Assembly (NCBI GenBank): GCA_965262615.1
Contig: OZ253545.1
Location: forward strand, 1,440,001 to 1,504,000
Direction of reading: 5' to 3'
Origin: Alphaproteobacteria bacterium
Lineage (GTDB): Bacteria; Pseudomonadota; Alphaproteobacteria; GM7ARS4; G965262615
DNA length: 64,000 bases
A program made the translations under genes and the position numbers. Shown piece by piece: positions 17,149-25,440 of the stretch (position 1 is the stretch's first letter; the number at the start of each line of letters is the position of its first letter). The notes under the pieces were generated by a model. It was not told the origin of the DNA. It did no database searches and worked only from the letters and a program-made list of their open reading frames with translations.

Positions 17149-17394
17149 TTAGTTGAGTCCCTCCGTGCCATGAACCGACTGCCAATACAGACGAACCGTC
17201 TGCAGTGAGGCGATCAGTGCATCTTGCAACAGTGATTGCTGTTGATGCTCGGCAGGCTTCATGCCTGCGGCTAAATCCTTTTTGATGGTCTGAATATGCT
17301 CTTCTAACATGCGCTCCAGTTGCTGTTTGTATGAGCCATCGCCGTCTTGAGTCAAACGCTCTTCAATGTCCAGCATGATGATGGGGTCAGTCAT
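17149..17394 (-). CDS. T3SS needle co-chaperone (YscE/EscE/SsaE family)
   Basis: IEERLTQDGDG...L...GMKPAEHQ...ALIAS...W pattern; lies between sctD and sctF. Confidence 0.75.
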   Translation of the reverse strand: MTDPIIMLDIEERLTQDGDGSYKQQLERMLEEHIQTIKKDLAAGMKPAEHQQQSLLQDALIASLQTVRLYWQSVHGTEGLN

Positions 17395-18685
17395 GATGAT
17401 TCTCCAATTGGGGGGAAAAAATGTAGTCATAGTCATGACCGCCGTGAGTCAATAACAAGCGATCCGACTCAATGGAGGCGAGGGTAAAGCCGTCAGACAA
17501 GGATGCACCCTCCTCAACCATGTGATGATCTCCTAAAATCACAAACGAACGAGGGCCCTTCACCACCGTTTGAATGGTCATGGCAAAGTGCGGAACTGAT
17601 TTCACATGATCATCCAGCACAATATGACCGCCGAACGCCGATGAGAACATCCCTTTGACCCGATTCCAGTGAGTGAAATCATCATCGTTCAACAAGCCGT
17701 AGGAATGAATCGTGCCATCGTCAACACGCAATGATACCGCCAAATTTTCTTTTTTGATGTTGTCACGCACATGAGAGGCAAAATCTTGCACCGTGATGAC
17801 CTGACTGTGAATCACAATCTGCGGCGCAAGGTCGTCACGCAATAAGGCAAGGGTTTTTTCATAATGGCGATAGGAAGACACCACACCCGCTATGCGAAAA
17901 TGCGCGCCGCCATCATCATAGACATCCAGTGCCATGCCGTATGCTTCCAGTCCCGCCCGCAACGATTGTGCCACGCTCGCCGTCACCACGATGGTGGTTT
18001 GAATCCTCCCCTGCCACGCTTTGGTGTATTGACGCAAATGTGCCAGCGTCTGACTTCGGCGCACACTGCCCGACAATTGAATGCCGCCATCCTTCAGCGA
18101 AGTCACCGTGACATAATCCATGTCGTCATTTTTGGCGATAAACTGCTGCAAGGCAATCAGGGGGGTAGGAGCGGGCATGGATGCAACCACCTCTTGTTTG
18201 TCTTCTTGAGGAACGGATGACCAATAAAACGCCGTGCTTGCCGCAAATGTCATCATCATTCCAGCCGCCACAGAAAGCACCGCCGCACCATGGGTATGAC
18301 TGGATTGGCGTTTAACAGGTTTCTCCTCCTTGCCACTGGATGTTGCGGGCGTGTCTGTGGTGGGAGCAGATTCATCCTCAACAGAGGAGGAAGACGCATG
18401 AGACAAATCAGCAAAATTCGTCTCGCTTGTTCCCAAACCGATGCGCACACCGCCCGCCATAAACACACACGGAAATTCCAAAGCGAGCGCCTCGTCTTCC
18501 TGATGCAACACATAACTGCCGTCATCCTGATGCTCCAGTGTGACCGCCGTCACATCATCATCGCTGAGAATAATATCGCAATCGGACTCTCGCCCAATAG
18601 ACAAAGACGACACCGCCATGGAGGCTTGCGCACCCTCATGGTGTCCACTGAGAATTTTAACAATTATTGCTTGTCCATCCGTCAT
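17387..18685 (-). CDS. sctD: T3SS inner-membrane ring protein (YscD family)
   Basis: KILSGHHEGA..IGRESDCDIILSD FHA-like domain, TM, BON-like domains, C-terminal EGASLSDGFTLASI. Confidence 0.85.
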   Translation of the reverse strand: MTDGQAIIVKILSGHHEGAQASMAVSSLSIGRESDCDIILSDDDVTAVTLEHQDDGSYVLHQEDEALALEFPCVFMAGGVRIGLGTSETNFADLSHASSSSVEDESAPTTDTPATSSGKEEKPVKRQSSHTHGAAVLSVAAGMMMTFAASTAFYWSSVPQEDKQEVVASMPAPTPLIALQQFIAKNDDMDYVTVTSLKDGGIQLSGSVRRSQTLAHLRQYTKAWQGRIQTTIVVTASVAQSLRAGLEAYGMALDVYDDGGAHFRIAGVVSSYRHYEKTLALLRDDLAPQIVIHSQVITVQDFASHVRDNIKKENLAVSLRVDDGTIHSYGLLNDDDFTHWNRVKGMFSSAFGGHIVLDDHVKSVPHFAMTIQTVVKGPRSFVILGDHHMVEEGASLSDGFTLASIESDRLLLTHGGHDYDYIFSPQLENHHD

Positions 18686-18771
18686 CAATGACTGCTCCTG
18701 CACGATTTTTATCTCTTTTGGTAACAGCTGGCATGGATATGTCACATACAGACCATGAGCTTCGTCACGCC

Positions 18772-19158
18772 ATGAATCAGTTAGAATTGATCATTGAAAA
18801 TTTCACGGCATTGCGTCAGATCACGCCCATCAGACGCAAAGGGGAGCTGTTTTTATTTCCCATTGATGATTCATTTACCCTGCGATGTTCCACCTATCGC
18901 GATGATGTCATCTTTGAGGCGACCGTTGCTCAAGGGAAAATGGACAGCACATGGCTGCACGACATGATGCGCATCAATCTGGGACGACAAAAAGAAAACA
19001 GCGACCTCATCGGCTATGATGCCAAAGAAGATGCCATCATTTTGTATATGCGCCATCCATTGCGCGAGCTGGATGTGCATCAGTTTGCCCATATTTTTGA
19101 CCAAATGACCATGTCACTACGCTTTTGGCAAAACCTCAAAGAGAGCCACGCCGCTTAA
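18772..19158 (+). CDS. Class I T3SS chaperone (YscB/CesT-like); start may be 18733 or 18739
   Basis: About 130 aa, FPIDD, MRINL, C-terminal amphipathic helix ending FW; immediately precedes the secretin. Confidence 0.65.
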   Translation: MNQLELIIENFTALRQITPIRRKGELFLFPIDDSFTLRCSTYRDDVIFEATVAQGKMDSTWLHDMMRINLGRQKENSDLIGYDAKEDAIILYMRHPLRELDVHQFAHIFDQMTMSLRFWQNLKESHAA

Positions 19159-19176
19159 TGAAAGACGGAGGATGAT

Positions 19177-20760
19177 ATGAGAATTGTCACATTCCTCATC
19201 GCGATGGTGCTGTCATCGGTGACTGTCGTGCATGGCTATGAGCTGCCGTGGAAAAAGGAGTCATTTTCCTATTACGGCAATGGAGAGTCACTCACTCAGG
19301 TGCTCAACAATTTTTCATTGAGCGTGGGAACGCACATCATCGTCAGCGATCAGGTGACAGGAACGCTGCAAGGTGCGTATTTTGCTCCCACAGCGCAGCA
19401 TTTCTTGCATCAATTGAGTGAACGGTACGGTTTGGTGTGGTATTACGATGGCGAGGTGTTGTATGTCTATCATCGCAACCAGTTGCAACAACGCCATCTT
19501 CATTCCGACATGATGACCGCGAGCGAATTGCAAAGACGCATTGAAAATCATCCCGCATGGAATCATCGCTACCAAATCTACACAGATGACACCGATGAGC
19601 AGGTGATTGTCACCGCGCCACCCCGTCTGATGGCGTTGCTGGAGAATTGGCTGGAGCAATGGAAAGAAGAGGAATCCTCAAGTCTTTATGTGAGTCGTAT
19701 TTTTCAGCTGCGCTATGCGTGGGCGACCGACAAAAAATTCAAAAACCGAGATGACACCATCGTGATTCCGGGCGTGGTGACGCTGCTGAAGAAAATCTTT
19801 GCCGGACAAGTCCCGCCGCCAAAAACCGAACAGACACCTCATGACAGAACCGCCAAAGGCGTTCTGGAGAACACGAAAAACCCCACCCAGACACAAACAG
19901 ACCCCAAGCCTATTTTTGACACACGCAATGATGTGCGCATTGAAGCAGATGTGCGTCTCAATGCGATTGTTATTCACGCGCCGCGCTATCAAATGGCGAT
20001 GTATGAAGAACTGATTGCCGAACTGGATGCTCCCGCAGGATTGATTGAAATTGAGGCAATGGTGGTGGATGTTTCCATTGAGAAAAGTGACGAGTTGGGC
20101 ATTTCGTGGCGACTCAGCAATGACCGCCATGCCATTGGCTACGGCACAATTGACAGCTCACTCAGTGTGGGCGAGGTGGTTGCCAATGTGGGTGCCGGGG
20201 TGAATTTTTCCACCCTGGCGGCATCGGGGGCACGGCAATTTTTGAGCCGTATCAGTGCCCTGAAAACGCAAGGCAACGCGCGCGTGATGTCACGCCCGTC
20301 TGTGCTCACCATTGATAATTTTGAGGCGGTGCTGGATTTGCATCAAACCTTTCATGTGCGGGTGGCGGGTCATGAGGCGGTGGAGCTCTATCCCATCACG
20401 GTGGGCACATTGCTCAAGGTGACGCCTCACATTATTGCGTCTCGTAAGGATCGCGGCATTCAGCTGGCGATTGCCATTGAGGATGGCAGTATTCTGCAGC
20501 AAACGGTGGATAACATTCCCATTGTTCGCAACAACACCATCAACACCCAAGCCATTATTGGCGAGCATCAGAGCCTGCTCATTGGCGGACACTATTATGA
20601 GAGCGAGAGCGATCGCGATGAGGGCATTCCCATTTTGCAAGACCTGCCGTTGATTGGCATGCTGTTCAGCCGTGAGCGCACCGAGCGCACCCGCATTGAG
20701 CGTCTTTATTTAATCACGCCGCGCATTATTGCGTTGCCCTCTGCCATGCTTCAGAATTGA
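19177..20760 (+). CDS. sctC: T3SS outer-membrane secretin (YscC/HrcC family)
   Basis: LVWYYDGEVLYVY, LRYAWATD, IPGVVTLL, GTLLKVTP, IEDG, SLLIGG, IPILQDLPLIGMLF. Confidence 0.93.
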   Translation: MRIVTFLIAMVLSSVTVVHGYELPWKKESFSYYGNGESLTQVLNNFSLSVGTHIIVSDQVTGTLQGAYFAPTAQHFLHQLSERYGLVWYYDGEVLYVYHRNQLQQRHLHSDMMTASELQRRIENHPAWNHRYQIYTDDTDEQVIVTAPPRLMALLENWLEQWKEEESSSLYVSRIFQLRYAWATDKKFKNRDDTIVIPGVVTLLKKIFAGQVPPPKTEQTPHDRTAKGVLENTKNPTQTQTDPKPIFDTRNDVRIEADVRLNAIVIHAPRYQMAMYEELIAELDAPAGLIEIEAMVVDVSIEKSDELGISWRLSNDRHAIGYGTIDSSLSVGEVVANVGAGVNFSTLAASGARQFLSRISALKTQGNARVMSRPSVLTIDNFEAVLDLHQTFHVRVAGHEAVELYPITVGTLLKVTPHIIASRKDRGIQLAIAIEDGSILQQTVDNIPIVRNNTINTQAIIGEHQSLLIGGHYYESESDRDEGIPILQDLPLIGMLFSRERTERTRIERLYLITPRIIALPSAMLQN

Positions 20761-22152: not shown

Positions 22153-22416
22153 TCAGCGCGCACCACTGATACTTCTTAACTTGATGACTTTTCCATCAAA
22201 GGTGTAAAATAACCTGTAGTGGTCACCCTTTATCGCTGTCGAGAACGGAACAACCCACAAATTATCCTTGCCACTGGCTAATTTGCCAAAATGAGGCTCG
22301 GAGCGAAGAACTAAAATAAGACCTCTCAAAGGTGTTGCAAAATCATCCTTGTGGATTTCCGTTAATCTTTCTACTCGTCTTTTAAATTTCTCTTCTAAAT
22401 GAATTTCATAATTCAT
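22153..22416 (-). CDS. RelE/ParE-like toxin
   Basis: 87 aa, basic; YEIHLEEKFKR, PHFGKL, GDHYRLFY; ATGA-coupled to the antitoxin. Confidence 0.6.
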   Translation of the reverse strand: MNYEIHLEEKFKRRVERLTEIHKDDFATPLRGLILVLRSEPHFGKLASGKDNLWVVPFSTAIKGDHYRLFYTFDGKVIKLRSISGAR

Positions 22417-22982
22417 GCTGCTTCCTCTAAATCTTCTTCTGTCAAATCATCGCTATTCATGACAAAAATAGCCTCATAGGGAATGACATCACCTTGCTTG
22501 AATGCACTCCATGCGGGGTATGTGTGTGATAATGCGGTGACCTCACTTGCGCTCTTGTCTTTGAGCTCCAAAACGATGTCATCAATGAGCATGATTTCAT
22601 CTTTGGTGAAATCACTCATATCTGCTTCTTGCTCATGTTTTATTTTTTTCTGCCCCAACCCGTGATATTTTTCATCTTTGACAGAGCACAAACCCTCCCC
22701 CACCATTTCACTGATGAGAGAATTGATTTTTTGCGGAACGGGACCATTAGGCATGACAAGATACCGATACCATGTAATCGCACTGCGCAATTTCATGAAG
22801 GCAAAGAAATCACAAAAGAACAAAATTTTGTCCAATTTTTTCACGCCAAAAGACGCATCGCTTTCGGACTTTTGCGCGATGTAAAGAATCAGATTTTTCA
22901 TCTTTGCATGGTCGGACTCGTGGCTCTCGCCCACTGACGGTGCTAATATGGCATCCAACAAAGAATTATTTTGCGCGGTCAT
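22413..22982 (-). CDS. Panacea (DUF4065/SocA-like) antitoxin
   Basis: KLDKILFFCDF, NGPVP, LSH...W, IPYE motifs. Confidence 0.85.
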   Translation of the reverse strand: MTAQNNSLLDAILAPSVGESHESDHAKMKNLILYIAQKSESDASFGVKKLDKILFFCDFFAFMKLRSAITWYRYLVMPNGPVPQKINSLISEMVGEGLCSVKDEKYHGLGQKKIKHEQEADMSDFTKDEIMLIDDIVLELKDKSASEVTALSHTYPAWSAFKQGDVIPYEAIFVMNSDDLTEEDLEEAA

Positions 22983-23091
22983 CGTCCATCTCCAGCCCAT
23001 AGATATAAAACACTTTACCATCAAACGCAACAGCGTCACCTGACACCTTTTGACGCACACACATTCATCATTTGGTATCATTTAGGATTAT

Positions 23092-23505
23092 TCAGCGCGC
23101 GTTTTGTATCCTGATGATGTCCTTTTCGTTTTTATTGACCCTTTCGCCAAGCACATGCATTTCGCTCATGTGCACATTGAAACGGTCATCAATGCCGTTG
23201 AGCCTGTTATACATATAACCCATTTGCTGTTCTATGTTGATGAGGCGTTCGCCATGTTCTTCTTGGGTGCGTTTGATGGCAGCCGTATCCTGTTGAATCA
23301 AGGACACATCGCTCTGTATTTTAGCAACATTTGCTTCTATTCTGCTGATATCCTCCCTCATTTCACTGAGATCCATGCGCGGTGCAAAATGCAAAGTGGC
23401 AAGAATCATGGCAAGAAACACAAGACCCAAGGCGACACCGCCGAGAATTGCGTTGTTTCTTTCAATCCAGTTTGCCAATTTACCTGCCACCAACAGCTCA
23501 CTCAT
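23092..23505 (-). CDS. Membrane-anchored coiled-coil protein, paralog A (137 aa)
   Basis: GGAGG RBS, N-terminal TM, heptad repeats. Confidence 0.75.
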   Translation of the reverse strand: MSELLVAGKLANWIERNNAILGGVALGLVFLAMILATLHFAPRMDLSEMREDISRIEANVAKIQSDVSLIQQDTAAIKRTQEEHGERLINIEQQMGYMYNRLNGIDDRFNVHMSEMHVLGERVNKNEKDIIRIQNAR

Positions 23506-23620
23506 AGAATCCCTCCGAATACTTAGTGGTAATTTAATATCTTTGATCGGCAAACGCAATAGCGTCACCTGACACCTTTTGACGCACACACATTCGTCAT
23601 TTGGCATCATTTGGCATTAT

Positions 23621-24013
23621 TCAGCGGGCGTTTTGTATCCTGATAATGTCCTTTTCGTTCTTATTGACCCTTTCGCCAAGCACATGCATTTCACTCATGT
23701 GCACATTGAAACGGTCATCAATGCCGTTGAGCCTGTTATACATATAACCCATTTGCTGTTCTATGTTGATGAGGCGTTCGCCGTGTTGTTCTTGGGTGCG
23801 TCTGATGGCAGCCGTATCCTGTTTAACGGAGGATACATCTTGCCGTATTTGAGCAATATCCTCCCTCATTTCACTGAGATCCATGCGCGGTGCAAAATAC
23901 AAGGTGGCAATGATCATGGAAAGAAACACAAGACCCAAGGCGACACCGCCGAGAATTGCGTTGTTTCTTTCAATCCAGTTTGCCAATTTACCTGCCACCA
24001 AAAACTCACTCAT
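23621..24013 (-). CDS. Membrane-anchored coiled-coil protein, paralog B (130 aa)
   Basis: Near-identical to paralog A apart from a variable stretch one heptad shorter. Confidence 0.75.
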   Translation of the reverse strand: MSEFLVAGKLANWIERNNAILGGVALGLVFLSMIIATLYFAPRMDLSEMREDIAQIRQDVSSVKQDTAAIRRTQEQHGERLINIEQQMGYMYNRLNGIDDRFNVHMSEMHVLGERVNKNEKDIIRIQNAR

Positions 24014-24139
24014 AGAATCCCTCCGAATACTTAGTGGCAATATAATCCTTTTCGCCATCAATCGCAATAGTCACTTGACACCCTTGAATTCGCGCCCATT
24101 TATCTTTTGCGATGGGGGGGATTTTTATAAAACTTTTAG

Positions 24140-24168
24140 TTGTATTTATGTGAGATGTGGTGTATGAT
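24140..24168 (+). promoter_or_regulatory. Putative sigma70 promoter driving the repeat array and nuclease
   Basis: TTGTAT-N17-TATGAT. Confidence 0.55.
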
Positions 24169-24219
24169 GAGTGCCATGACCCACCTTGATTTTTATCGCG
24201 TTTTATCACACCATCACTG

Positions 24220-24368
24220 TGTCGAGACAAGACACCCACTGAGGTTGGGTGTCCCATTGAATACAACACCCAACGGCTTGCCGTCAGTGCGAGCTGCGGC
24301 TGGCTTATGGGAAATAGGTGGGGATGCGACAGTGTCTTGTGCTCGACAACACCCAATCAATGGGTGTT
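24220..24368 (+). ncRNA. Putative structured RNA, copy 1 (unassigned family)
   Basis: Outer stem 24220-24235/24332-24348, internal stem, GCGA-capped hairpin, downstream hairpin. Confidence 0.55.
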
Positions 24369-24493
24369 TCAGCGAAACAGGAGCTGTGCCGTGAAAACAC
24401 AACCTTGGTGGATGATTGTTTGTCTAAGGTGGGGTGCGTGATGAGTGTCATGACCCATCTTGATTTTTGCCGTGTTTTATCACACCATCACTG

Positions 24494-24642
24494 TGCCGAT
24501 ACAGAACACCCACCTCGGTTGGGTGTCTCGCTAAATACAATACCCAGCCGCTTGTCATCAGCGAAAGCTACGGCTTGCCTACGGGAAATAAGCGGGGATA
24601 CTACAGTGTTCTGTTATCGGCAACGCCCAATCAATGGGTGTT
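24494..24642 (+). ncRNA. Putative structured RNA, copy 2
   Basis: Outer stem 24494-24509/24606-24622, GAAA-capped hairpin. Confidence 0.55.
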
Positions 24643-24766
24643 TCAGCGAAACAGGAGCTGTGCCGTGAGAACACAACCTTGGTGGATGATTGTTTGTCTA
24701 AGGTGGGGTGCATGATGATTCTCATGACCCGCCTTGATTTTTGTCGTGTTTTATCACACTATCTTT

Positions 24767-24913
24767 TTACGGAAAGTGGAACGCCCACTAGGGTTGGGTG
24801 TCCCACCAAATACAACACCCAACGGCTTGCCGACAGTGCAAGCTGTCACTGCCTATGGGAAATAGGTGGGGAGACAAAGCGTTTCACTTTCCGTAACACC
24901 CAATCACTGGGTG
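24767..24913 (+). ncRNA. Putative structured RNA, copy 3
   Basis: Outer stem 24767-24784/24879-24896, GCAA-capped hairpin. Confidence 0.55.
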
Positions 24914-24944
24914 CTATCTTGAAGAGTGAAACAGGAGCTTTGTT

Positions 24945-25388
24945 GTGAAAACACAACCTTGGTGGATTGTTTTTTGTTTCGTATTGGTCATCACATCGGC
25001 TCATGGCGATGGCACGGTTATGAAGTATCCTATCTCGGCGCGCGCCATGCGGGTCATTGATGGTGACAGCATCGTCATCTCGGCACACCTTTGGCTCAAT
25101 CTCTATCAAGAAACCGTTTTGCGTCTTGCCCATGTGGATGCTCCCGAACTCAGAGGCAAGTGTCCCGAAGAAAAAGTCAAAGCCGAAGAAGCGTTGCGAT
25201 TCGTCAAACAATGGCTTGAAGGCAGCGACACGCTGACCATTCATGATATCAAACAAGGCAAATTCGGCGGACGGGTCGTGGGACGCATCACCAACGAACG
25301 CAATGAAGACTTAGGACAATTGCTGCTGGCAAGACAACTGGCGCATCCCTACACAGGAGAACGCCGCCGCAGCTGGTGTGTTTCGTGA
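24945..25388 (+). CDS. Thermonuclease (SNase-like) family protein with signal peptide
   Basis: RVIDGDSI, LRLAHVDAPE, KFGGR, LAHPY; AGGAG RBS, GTG start. Confidence 0.88.
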   Translation: MKTQPWWIVFCFVLVITSAHGDGTVMKYPISARAMRVIDGDSIVISAHLWLNLYQETVLRLAHVDAPELRGKCPEEKVKAEEALRFVKQWLEGSDTLTIHDIKQGKFGGRVVGRITNERNEDLGQLLLARQLAHPYTGERRRSWCVS

Positions 25389-25408
25389 AAACATTTAATG
25401 ATGACCAA

Positions 25409-25440
25409 TTCATCATTTCATCATTTCATCATTTCATCAT
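25409..25440. repeat. 8-bp microsatellite at the acs stop
   Basis: TTCATCAT x4. Confidence 0.9.

Follow-up and report, generated by a model that had tools for sequence, protein, structure and literature searches.

The window, i.e., the whole stretch of DNA analyzed here, comprises 64,000 nucleotides of an alphaproteobacterial genome (assembly GCA_965262615.1, contig OZ253545.1, positions 1,440,001 to 1,504,000 of the forward strand), and at 24155-24976 it carries three tandem units of a structured element directly in front of a gene encoding an SNase-like nuclease. The array reads as a structured plus-strand RNA leader. As judged by sequence and fold, its units are divergent, triplicated members of the family sRNA-Xcc1 (Rfam RF02221), and the array element is no new class. 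On balance the array is best read as a threefold tandem duplication of an sRNA-Xcc1-type mRNA leader, which would control translation via pairing of a variable arm with the start region of the gene behind it. The repeated stretch and its gene are laid out as follows.

24140..24168, plus strand: promoter-like sequence TTGTAT-N17-TATGAT, 5' of unit 1, by direct reading of the sequence
24155..24428, plus strand: unit 1, 85% identity to unit 2
24391..24441, plus strand: 16-codon open reading frame (ORF) 1, a truncated copy of the nuclease N-terminus with AGGAG 5' of it
24429..24702, plus strand: unit 2, a 274-bp tandem repeat by alignment
24665..24715, plus strand: 16-codon ORF 2, in unit 2, a truncated copy of the nuclease N-terminus
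24703..24976, plus strand: unit 3, 75% identity to unit 2, continuing into the real nuclease gene
24945..25388, plus strand: SNase-like nuclease (Pfam), 147 amino acids (aa), GTG start, N-terminal signal-peptide-like stretch

A sequence-only reading of this DNA had described three units of 274 bp, each closed by AGGAG and the start of the nuclease gene, and both descriptions are borne out. Tandem Repeats Finder reports a repeat with a period of 274, 2.6 copies and 81% matches at 24159-24872, and aligning 24155-24428, 24429-24702 and 24703-24990 gives a mean column identity of 86%. Each unit extends from the -10 region of a promoter-like site over approximately 190 nt of structured sequence and AGGAG to the first nuclease codons, and the short ORFs arising in this way would encode VKTQPWWMIVCLRWGA in unit 1 and VRTQPWWMIVCLRWGA in unit 2. 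The promoter that had been proposed is present as a sequence (TTGTAT at 24140-24145, a 17-nt spacer, TATGAT at 24163-24168) and is unlisted by a consensus promoter scan, because its first hexamer fits at only 3/6 positions; the corresponding sites of units 2 and 3, CGTGAT and CATGAT, are weaker than that of unit 1. A scan of the plus strand for terminator-like sites 3' of any unit found none.

A single contig of run X5 covers 24100-25393 with 46 differences and no gaps. It spans the whole array, which is therefore real, no assembly artefact, and preserved in a diverged strain. Contigs of the runs X1, X2 and X4 cover the stretch piecewise. Those of X1 and X2 stop at 24348/24349 and 24622 in an alternative arm sequence resembling a hybrid of the unit-1 and unit-2 arms, which suggests arm polymorphism or inter-unit recombination among strains. 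BLAST of the array against 40 relatives gave no match; among the compared genomes the source genome is the sole member of its family and genus. Moreover, a degenerate 26-mer of the form of the element found in the window was scanned by exact matching in genome and metagenome contigs, with 0 matches in the genome contigs; the two metagenome matches, L048 and L049, were rejected on reading, being AT-rich DNA that fits the pattern by chance and lacks the family fold.

Fold of the units and their family

The outer stem of 16-18 bp, which had been described as divergent in sequence yet complementary, is confirmed: among its 16 aligned pairs 9 are changed on both sides over the three units, 97.9% of the cells are paired, and the 4 differences between units 1 and 2 in the 5' strand, segment A, are compensated 4/4 in the opposite strand, arm A'. 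For the whole structure of 44 pairs, 95.5% of the cells are paired compared to 33-45% after shifting the 3' partner by 1-3 columns. Within the 123 pair cells of the three units, 9 are G-U or U-G and 5 are unpaired. The 9 G-U cells correspond to A-C mismatches on the minus strand and it is therefore the plus strand that folds, in agreement with what had been read from the wobbles.

Inside the outer stem, the proposed stem of GTTGGGTGT and A(C/T)ACCCA(A/G)C, a local hairpin of GTTGGGTGT with ACACCCAAC, is present with 9 pairs, which are 100% paired and show zero double changes. The hairpin capped by GCGA, GAAA and GCAA is found on reading the three sequences, its stem being 81% paired. A further hairpin with a GGGAA loop, which overlaps the conserved sRNA-Xcc1 family strand GGGAAAUA, shows good pairing in units 1 and 3 and falls to 3/5 pairs in unit 2. 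The tract CCCAT/CTCGC/CCCAC pairs with GTGGG/GCGGG/GTGGG in 5 pairs (100% paired, 1 double and 2 single changes), so the covarying pairing proposed for it is real. The pseudoknot that had been read into it is not: since GGTTGGGTGT pairs with the distal ACACCCAATC as helix P1, the tract becomes the nested helix P2 of sRNA-Xcc1. GTTGGGTGT thus has ACACCCAATC as an alternative distal partner, and the window units carry a P1 of 10 pairs and a P2 of 5 pairs, in both of which 100% of the cells are paired. Within the array, neither the local nor the distal pairing of the GTTGGGTGT-type strand has a double change, and each is 100% paired. Only the comparison within the family decides between them: the distal pairing is the one that covaries over 41 members. 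In the copy at 240083 of the same genome the distal pairing is kept and the local partner is missing. Minimum-energy folds of single units return the proposed structure for units 2 and 3, and for unit 1 a fold without the outer stem.

The sequence-only reading had left the element without an assignable family and had considered a ribozyme. At gathering thresholds, an Rfam scan of the whole window indeed returned only a tRNA at 299-385 and no match in the array. At a relaxed threshold, however, RF02221 matches all three units below its cut-off in a common register, with an insertion of 36-37 nt at the model's 4-nt loop, so that a divergent relative of sRNA-Xcc1 takes the place of the element without family; nothing in the analysis points to a ribozyme. 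A covariance model, R1, was built from a seed of 20 sequences (11 other copies from the source genome and 9 RF02221 matches from elsewhere), which leaves out the window sequences and the GTTGGGTGT subtype. R1 matches the units over its full length (E 2.8e-8, 1.5e-8 and 1.6e-8 for units 1, 2 and 3), every modelled pair being standard in all three of them; the next-best score in the 64-kb window is 15.4 bits. Furthermore, R1 recovers the RF02221 match in 37/37 loci tried with 29-58 bits, among them above-cut-off members that reach 60-76 bits by Rfam's own model. The cores delimited in this way are listed here with their scores.

24244..24360, plus strand: family core of unit 1, R1 48.0 bits, RF02221 16.5 bits
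24518..24634, plus strand: family core of unit 2, R1 49.2 bits, RF02221 21.4 bits
24793..24907, plus strand: family core of unit 3, R1 49.1 bits, RF02221 23.9 bits

In unit 1, the core is composed of P1 (GTTGGGTGT with ACACCCAAT), P2, the conserved loop AAUACAA..ACC / GGGAAAUA and the inserted GNRA hairpin. The local hairpin P3, which in the family lies between P2 and the 3' strand of P1, is missing from the window units; arm A' occupies the segment, and the posterior probabilities of the Rfam alignment drop to 3-5 over it. An alignment of 41 members, fitted to the R1 model itself, shows double-sided changes at 7/9 pairs of P1 and 5/5 pairs of P2, and 96.6% of its cells are paired compared to 35-52% with a shifted partner, a value that 0/500 shuffles reach. 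Two further alignments were not counted: the MAFFT alignment A2 of 23 matches is out of structural register and RNAalifold returns almost no structure for it, and A3 misaligns the copy at 240083. Within the class, RF02221 was found at E<=1e-3 in 25/151 sampled genomes and exceeds the cut-off in 5, a tally that includes the unpublished genome G043 (24/150 without it; its locus L042 stands outside all analyses). Within the phylum, it was found at E<=1e-4 in 35/151 genomes, with 24 above the cut-off.

The source genome, a single contig of 1.54 Mb, contains 18 sub-threshold RF02221 matches and 22 R1 copies at 12 loci, of which 7 are tandem with two or three copies 67-321 nt apart. In 14/22 of the copies, a start codon preceded by a Shine-Dalgarno sequence follows 25-45 nt 3' of the element, invariably on the same strand; the true starts of the window units lie at +31, +31 and +38. 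The sequence-only reading had named many dispersed copies as the sign of a miniature inverted-repeat transposable element (MITE). The copies are many, and the marks of a mobile repeat are missing: outer repeats that diverge, together with a fixed orientation and distance to the start codon, do not fit a transposon. Half of the copies with a start codon (7/14; 570659, 570866, 1348790, 1348954 and 1392568 in the source genome G000:C1, and 24391 and 24665 in window numbering) lead ORFs of 7-17 codons, often ending at or just before the next tandem copy. These ORFs could be remnants of duplication or, by analogy, coupling ORFs like icd in P1.

The variable loop and the start region of the following gene

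The variable P3 loops of the family are complementary to the ribosome-binding region of the next ORF and covary with it. This was measured in 65 family members from about 50 genomes, divided into set 1, with 35 elements from the own genome and from genomes of the same class, and set 2, with 30 loci from the phylum that were fixed before inspection. The measure was the best contiguous helix that P3 can form with the following 100 nt, compared between cognate and permuted pairs. In set 1 the cognate score is 17.7 vs 14.85 +/- 0.43 for permuted pairs and in set 2 it is 17.65 vs 14.89 +/- 0.43; 0/10,000 permutations are as high in either set, and the same holds for set 1 after its reduction to a single element for each paralogue group (n=28). 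The target was also narrowed to -30..+3 of a heuristically called start, which stayed uncalled in 11/36 cases of set 1 and 1/30 of set 2. Here helices of at least 8 bp occur in 12/25 cognate vs 121/600 non-cognate pairs (set 1) and in 14/29 vs 76/812 (set 2). RNAduplex energies, with 1/5000 and 6/5000 permutations, were dropped as a measure, being noisy and allowing large internal loops.

Moreover, near-identical leaders with the same flanks carry differing and yet matched loop/target pairs, namely CTTGTGTC/GACACAAG, CTGTTTGC/GCAAACAG and CTTACGTC/GACGTAAG, and related leaders carry the further pairs CTACTTGC/GCAAGTAG and GTCGTATTGC/GTAATACGAC. Related leaders with different matching pairs show that this is covariation and no mere shared descent. 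No description of the complementarity was found in the literature searched, which did not extend to the main 2011 sRNA-Xcc1 paper (Chen et al.). P3 is also complementary to the 60 nt upstream of the element in set 1, with 0/10,000 permutations as high; examples of such an upstream duplicate are a 15-bp match at the own copy 570659 and a 10-bp match at L046, which stands before another SNase gene.

The genes 3' of family elements encode SNase, Bro-N + P22_AR_C antirepressor, Rha, PD-(D/E)XK nuclease, GmrSD-type nuclease, DNA methylase, a helix-turn-helix (HTH) protein, a Sel1 protein, lipoproteins and unknowns. SymE was dropped as a downstream gene of leaders from other classes, there being no Pfam match for L050, L060, L066 and L053. 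The trinucleotide CCA preceded by A or G, tRNA-acceptor-like and directly 3' of P1, is present in 18/28 same-class members (loci L019-L047) and in 3/30 of the phylum-level set; by analogy, such an RCCA after P1 would fit processing by RNase P as in c4 RNA, whose 5' end is matured by this enzyme at the base of P1.

Two loci of the family were noted apart from these counts. L021 (G017:C1:749745-751817) has three above-cut-off RF02221 matches exactly 994 bp apart, each followed by a 104-aa ORF, and its P3 loop and target differ in step between the repeats, TCTTTTGTTAG/CTAACAAAAGG vs TCTTGTTTTAG/CTAAAACAGGG. At L055, in the genome G238, two matches to TwoAYGGAY RNA, just above the cut-off of that family, lie at 2372-2494 on the minus strand and 2791-2857 on the plus strand, ~0.8-1.3 kb from the sRNA-Xcc1 element.

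In the window subtype, the place of the P3 loop is taken by the arm A', and the following features bear on it.

24220..24235, plus strand: A1, 5' strand of the outer stem and upstream duplicate of the arm target; A1:A'1 -23.8 kcal/mol
24332..24348, plus strand: A'1, variable arm at the P3 position, pairs with A1
24494..24509, plus strand: A2, -23.8 kcal/mol with A'2
24606..24622, plus strand: A'2, pairs with A2
24767..24784, plus strand: A3 (18 nt), -27.9 kcal/mol with A'3
24879..24896, plus strand: A'3, the arm of unit 3, pairs with A3 and via GTTTCACTTT also with the stretch 5' of the nuclease Shine-Dalgarno sequence
24923..24937, plus strand: AGAGTGAAAC (24923-24932), complementary to the unit-3 arm, and immediately 3' of it the AGGAG Shine-Dalgarno sequence (24933-24937)

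The long outer A-A' helix is found in five copies of the source genome, i.e., the three units, 827953 and 240083; the P3 position is without a local hairpin in the three units and 827953, and 240083 retains one. Segment A lies 8 nt 5' of P1 and pairs with arm A', and the resulting order A, P1-5', A', P1-3' means that A-A' crosses P1. As there is 1 nt between A' and P1-3', both helices are mutually exclusive or strongly strained. The cognate pairings (-23.8, -23.8 and -27.9 kcal/mol) are far stronger than the cross pairings at -3.7 to -14.6 kcal/mol (for units 1 and 2 -14.6 and -10.3 kcal/mol), and the stems are therefore largely orthogonal. The arm of unit 3 forms a 10-bp helix of -12.4 kcal/mol between GTTTCACTTT and AGAGTGAAAC, which only 1/54 background start regions equals. 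Unit 3, which adjoins the real gene, is the sole window unit with a start-region complementarity above background; at 240083 the arm forms a helix of 9 bp with its start region (3/54 background regions as long).

The nuclease itself scores 19.9 bits against Pfam SNase, just below the cut-off of 21, and shares 36% identity over 117 aa (E 5e-27) with an SNase of the genome G098 (43.7 bits). The latter stands behind an RF02221-type leader (48 bits) with a 10-bp upstream duplicate of its P3, so that the combination of such a leader and such a nuclease recurs. Of the link to the nuclease that had been proposed, a linkage in cis is supported, and the reservation that a secreted nuclease hardly fits a cytoplasmic ribonucleoprotein becomes moot, because the element reads as an mRNA leader rather than as a ribonucleoprotein partner of the nuclease.

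Further features lie around the array. At 22153-23081 on the minus strand, a 222-aa SocA/Panacea antitoxin-domain protein (55.6 bits) precedes and overlaps an 87-aa ORF without Pfam match; this pair is what the sequence-only reading had called a divergent toxin-antitoxin cassette. Between it and the array, coiled-coil-like ORFs are located at 23092-23610 and 23621-24067, both on the minus strand. The perfect 8-nt repeat TTCATCAT occurs four times at 25409-25440, ~20 nt past the nuclease stop codon and between the convergent nuclease and acetyl-CoA synthetase genes. Approximately 3.5 kb upstream of the array, at 17387-20760, there are type III secretion genes (YscD-like inner-membrane ring protein, secretin), and the source genome has many Sel1-repeat genes; together, these two gene groups suggest a host-associated lifestyle.

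Proposed working and competing explanations

We infer transcription, repression, a switch and processing, which in the favored reading, a triplicated leader of the nuclease gene, would work together as follows. The duplicated module would begin at the -10 box, reach approximately codon 9 of the nuclease and consist of a conserved scaffold, i.e., the closing helix P1 and P2 with the asymmetric loop (G/A)AAUACAAnACC // GG(G)AAAUA, and of one variable arm. In the family, this arm is the P3 loop and would be antisense to the translation-initiation region of the ORF 30-45 nt downstream, making the leader a putative cis-encoded translational repressor or controller with a c4-like build. In the window subtype, the local P3 hairpin would have been exchanged for the 17-18-nt arm A', fully paired with its upstream duplicate A. 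A free arm, with A processed away or untranscribed, would mask the nuclease start region, and an arm held by A would leave it open. Units 1 and 2, whose structure is still under selection, would be additional modules, each with a largely orthogonal A/A' pair of its own and a remnant ORF of 16 codons, and may serve as insulated leader domains, as processing sites or as released small RNAs.

Several observations weigh against this reading. All three units, and every copy in the source genome, the best of which scores 41.2 bits, stay below the RF02221 gathering cut-off of 53 bits, and c4 RNA (RF01695) gave no match at E<=10 in 24000-25100 nor at E<=0.01 in 20 family loci, so that the likeness to c4 is one of design only. 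The plus-strand promoter-like site is below the threshold of the consensus scan. The RCCA tail is missing in the window units (by reading) and in 8/8 own-genome copies in the set. In the family, about half of the members are without a clear helix between arm and start region, and the signal of the upstream duplicate is weak in set 2 (673/10,000). In the array, the arms of units 1 and 2 are at background level: with the start regions that follow they form helices of 7 bp, equaled by 24-26/54 background regions, and the same is true of the arm of the related copy 827953 with 6 bp (35/54). Genome-wide trans targets of the three arms amount to one or two 13-mers per arm, close to chance (estimate ~0.5). 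The minimum-energy fold of the 815-nt array retains the A-A' helix of unit 3 alone (18/18), units 1 and 2 pairing across units (0/16 each). Finally, A:A' with -24 to -28 kcal/mol is far stronger than the pairing of arm and start region with -12.4 kcal/mol, and since A is also transcribed first, the arm would be locked without processing and the leader simply be "on".

Four other explanations were weighed. According to the first, unit 3 is the sole working leader, units 1 and 2 are left over from two rounds of tandem duplication and are decaying, and the array as such is functionless. This would agree with ORFs in units 1 and 2 that are truncated copies of the nuclease N-terminus, with arms in these units that do not match the start regions behind them and with the weaker promoter-like sites of the later units. 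Tandem copies are, moreover, common in the genome: 10/22 elements have a neighboring copy no more than 700 nt away, and ORFs of 7-17 codons stand behind several tandem copies. This frequency could reflect a high duplication rate. However, decay is difficult to reconcile with the compensation of every A difference between units 1 and 2 and of 9/16 pairs over the three units, with conserved family loops that are intact in 3/3 units, and with an array free of indels in a strain that shows 46 differences; donors of the arms for gene conversion are found nowhere else in the source genome. On the whole, we consider this first explanation unlikely.

Second, the units might be three independent genes for trans-acting small RNAs of ~100-130 nt each, whose different arm sequences address different mRNAs. 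The model for this is the prototype of Xanthomonas campestris, for which a discrete 88-nt RNA by RACE and a single ~100-nt Northern band are reported (PMC2996969), and likewise five homologues of Xylella fastidiosa Temecula1, ~381-386 bp apart, are all reported to be detected as transcripts (PMC12189769). In the window, however, each arm finds its best partner in its own upstream A, with genome-wide matches at chance level, the plus strand has no terminator-like site after the units in the scan, and among family members the variable loop is matched to the ORF that immediately follows. All of this makes trans action of the three units rather improbable.

A third possibility, which we hold to be quite improbable, is that the conserved core acts as a sensor, i.e., as a riboswitch-like aptamer or protein site, with A-A', P1 and a hairpin after P1 as expression platform and tandem copies sharpening the response. 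Both strands of the loop, (G/A)AAUACAAnACC and GG(G)AAAUA, are near-invariant from this genome through other classes, GTTGGGTGT-type strands have three mutually exclusive pairings (local hairpin, distal P1, post-P1 hairpin), and by reading other family members, too, have a hairpin that overlaps P1 on its 3' strand. Nevertheless, neither a ligand nor a protein can be named, and the heterogeneous downstream genes, without a metabolic theme, argue against a metabolite ligand.

Integron attC sites follow the consensus GTTRRRY in a set order of motifs. A DNA-level element, be it a MITE or a REP-like repeat, a cruciform or a folded recombination site such as attC, is scarcely credible: the 22 copies in 1.54 Mb, the 16-18-bp inverted repeats around a core of ~95 bp, a GTTGGGT that fits the attC-type motif and the integron cassettes in which Xanthomonas members sit according to a preprint (bioRxiv 10.1101/2025.06.18.660453) are outweighed by outer inverted repeats that are not conserved as ends (9/16 positions differ among the three units), by the lack of target-site duplications or flanking direct repeats on reading the array sequence, by the 9 G-U cells that would be A-C mismatches on the opposite strand, and by a fixed orientation and start-codon distance with a variable loop covarying with an mRNA feature. 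The attC reading in particular was dropped, the motif order being reversed (GTTGGGT before ACCCAAC) and the unit far too long.

Relation to known systems

Automatic annotation assigns sRNA-Xcc1 to many genomes and phages, and the RNA is discussed as a trans-acting small RNA with a link to virulence; how it acts is not shown in the literature examined. For the family as a whole, we tentatively propose, with a chance that we place a little below even, that sRNA-Xcc1 members are no ordinary trans-acting small RNAs and instead widespread, programmable c4-like cis-antisense leaders of phages, integron cassettes and islands, in which a fixed scaffold carries a hypervariable loop matched to each gene, often together with an upstream decoy copy, and that the array in the window is a three-module extreme, with largely orthogonal self-decoys of 16-18 bp, in front of a secreted nuclease in a reduced genome. 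If true, the family would be recast as a modular translational lock on mobile genes such as antirepressors, nucleases, methylases and lipoproteins, and sRNA-Xcc1 would be linked in design to the classic c4 immunity RNA of P1. The window array would then be a natural three-module test case for the avoidance of mis-pairing and for the role of upstream decoy copies; its long, mutually distinct stems speak of strong compensatory evolution.

The closest relative is sRNA-Xcc1 of an X. campestris integron cassette. The window units share with it a P1 of 9-10 bp, a P2 with the asymmetric loop AAUACAA..ACC / GG(G)AAUA, the position directly 5' of an ORF on mobile or accessory DNA, and the occurrence in multiple copies, in some genomes in tandem. 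They differ in carrying a GNRA-capped hairpin of 33-37 nt at the 4-nt loop of the model, in an arm that pairs over 16-18 bp with the 5' leader, crossing P1, instead of a local P3 hairpin, and in the lack of an RCCA-type tail, and they reach 16-24 bits with RF02221 vs the required 53. Moreover, sRNA-Xcc1 is treated as a trans-acting small RNA in those parts of the literature examined, whereas it is a cis leader in the present reading. The elements sXF1-5 of a genomic island of X. fastidiosa Temecula1 resemble the window in forming a tight tandem array, with ~381-386 bp compared to 274-275 bp here; in contrast to the window units, they are above the Rfam cut-off according to the Bakta/Infernal annotation of the authors and are described as vesicle-borne trans-acting small RNAs, a comparison based on the published description (PMC12189769).

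Tandem riboswitches and other translational leaders that mask the Shine-Dalgarno sequence in a long-range helix resemble the array in having a leader with a 5' structure, helices that alternate, a segment that pairs with the start region, and serial modules. The units have a conserved core; their downstream genes are heterogeneous and share no pathway. Unlike the expression platform of a riboswitch, the pairing segment is hypervariable and gene-specific. From MITE and REP elements the array is set apart by outer repeats that differ at 9/16 positions and, on reading, by the lack of flanking direct repeats.

In its design, the array resembles the c4 RNA, which belongs to the immI operon of the phages P1 and P7. 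The c4 system of P1 contains an extra upstream copy of the target (a1b1). Unit 3 has the c4 layout, presumably on a single transcript, with A'3 as antisense arm, AGAGTGAAAC next to AGGAG as target at the ribosome-binding site, and A3 as the duplicate of the target upstream. The c4 RNA of P1 and P7 uses antisense loops against a target at the ribosome-binding site within one transcript, and large multi-copy families of the c4 type exist in some genomes (PMC5320573). There are differences, as the sRNA-Xcc1 family has one variable loop vs two in c4, and the gene in the window encodes a secreted nuclease while that of c4 encodes an antirepressor. Antirepressor-type genes (Bro-N + P22_AR_C, Rha) stand behind many sRNA-Xcc1 members, and both systems share a structured RNA with variable loops complementary to the ribosome-binding site of the next ORF, in which changes of loop and target set the specificity.

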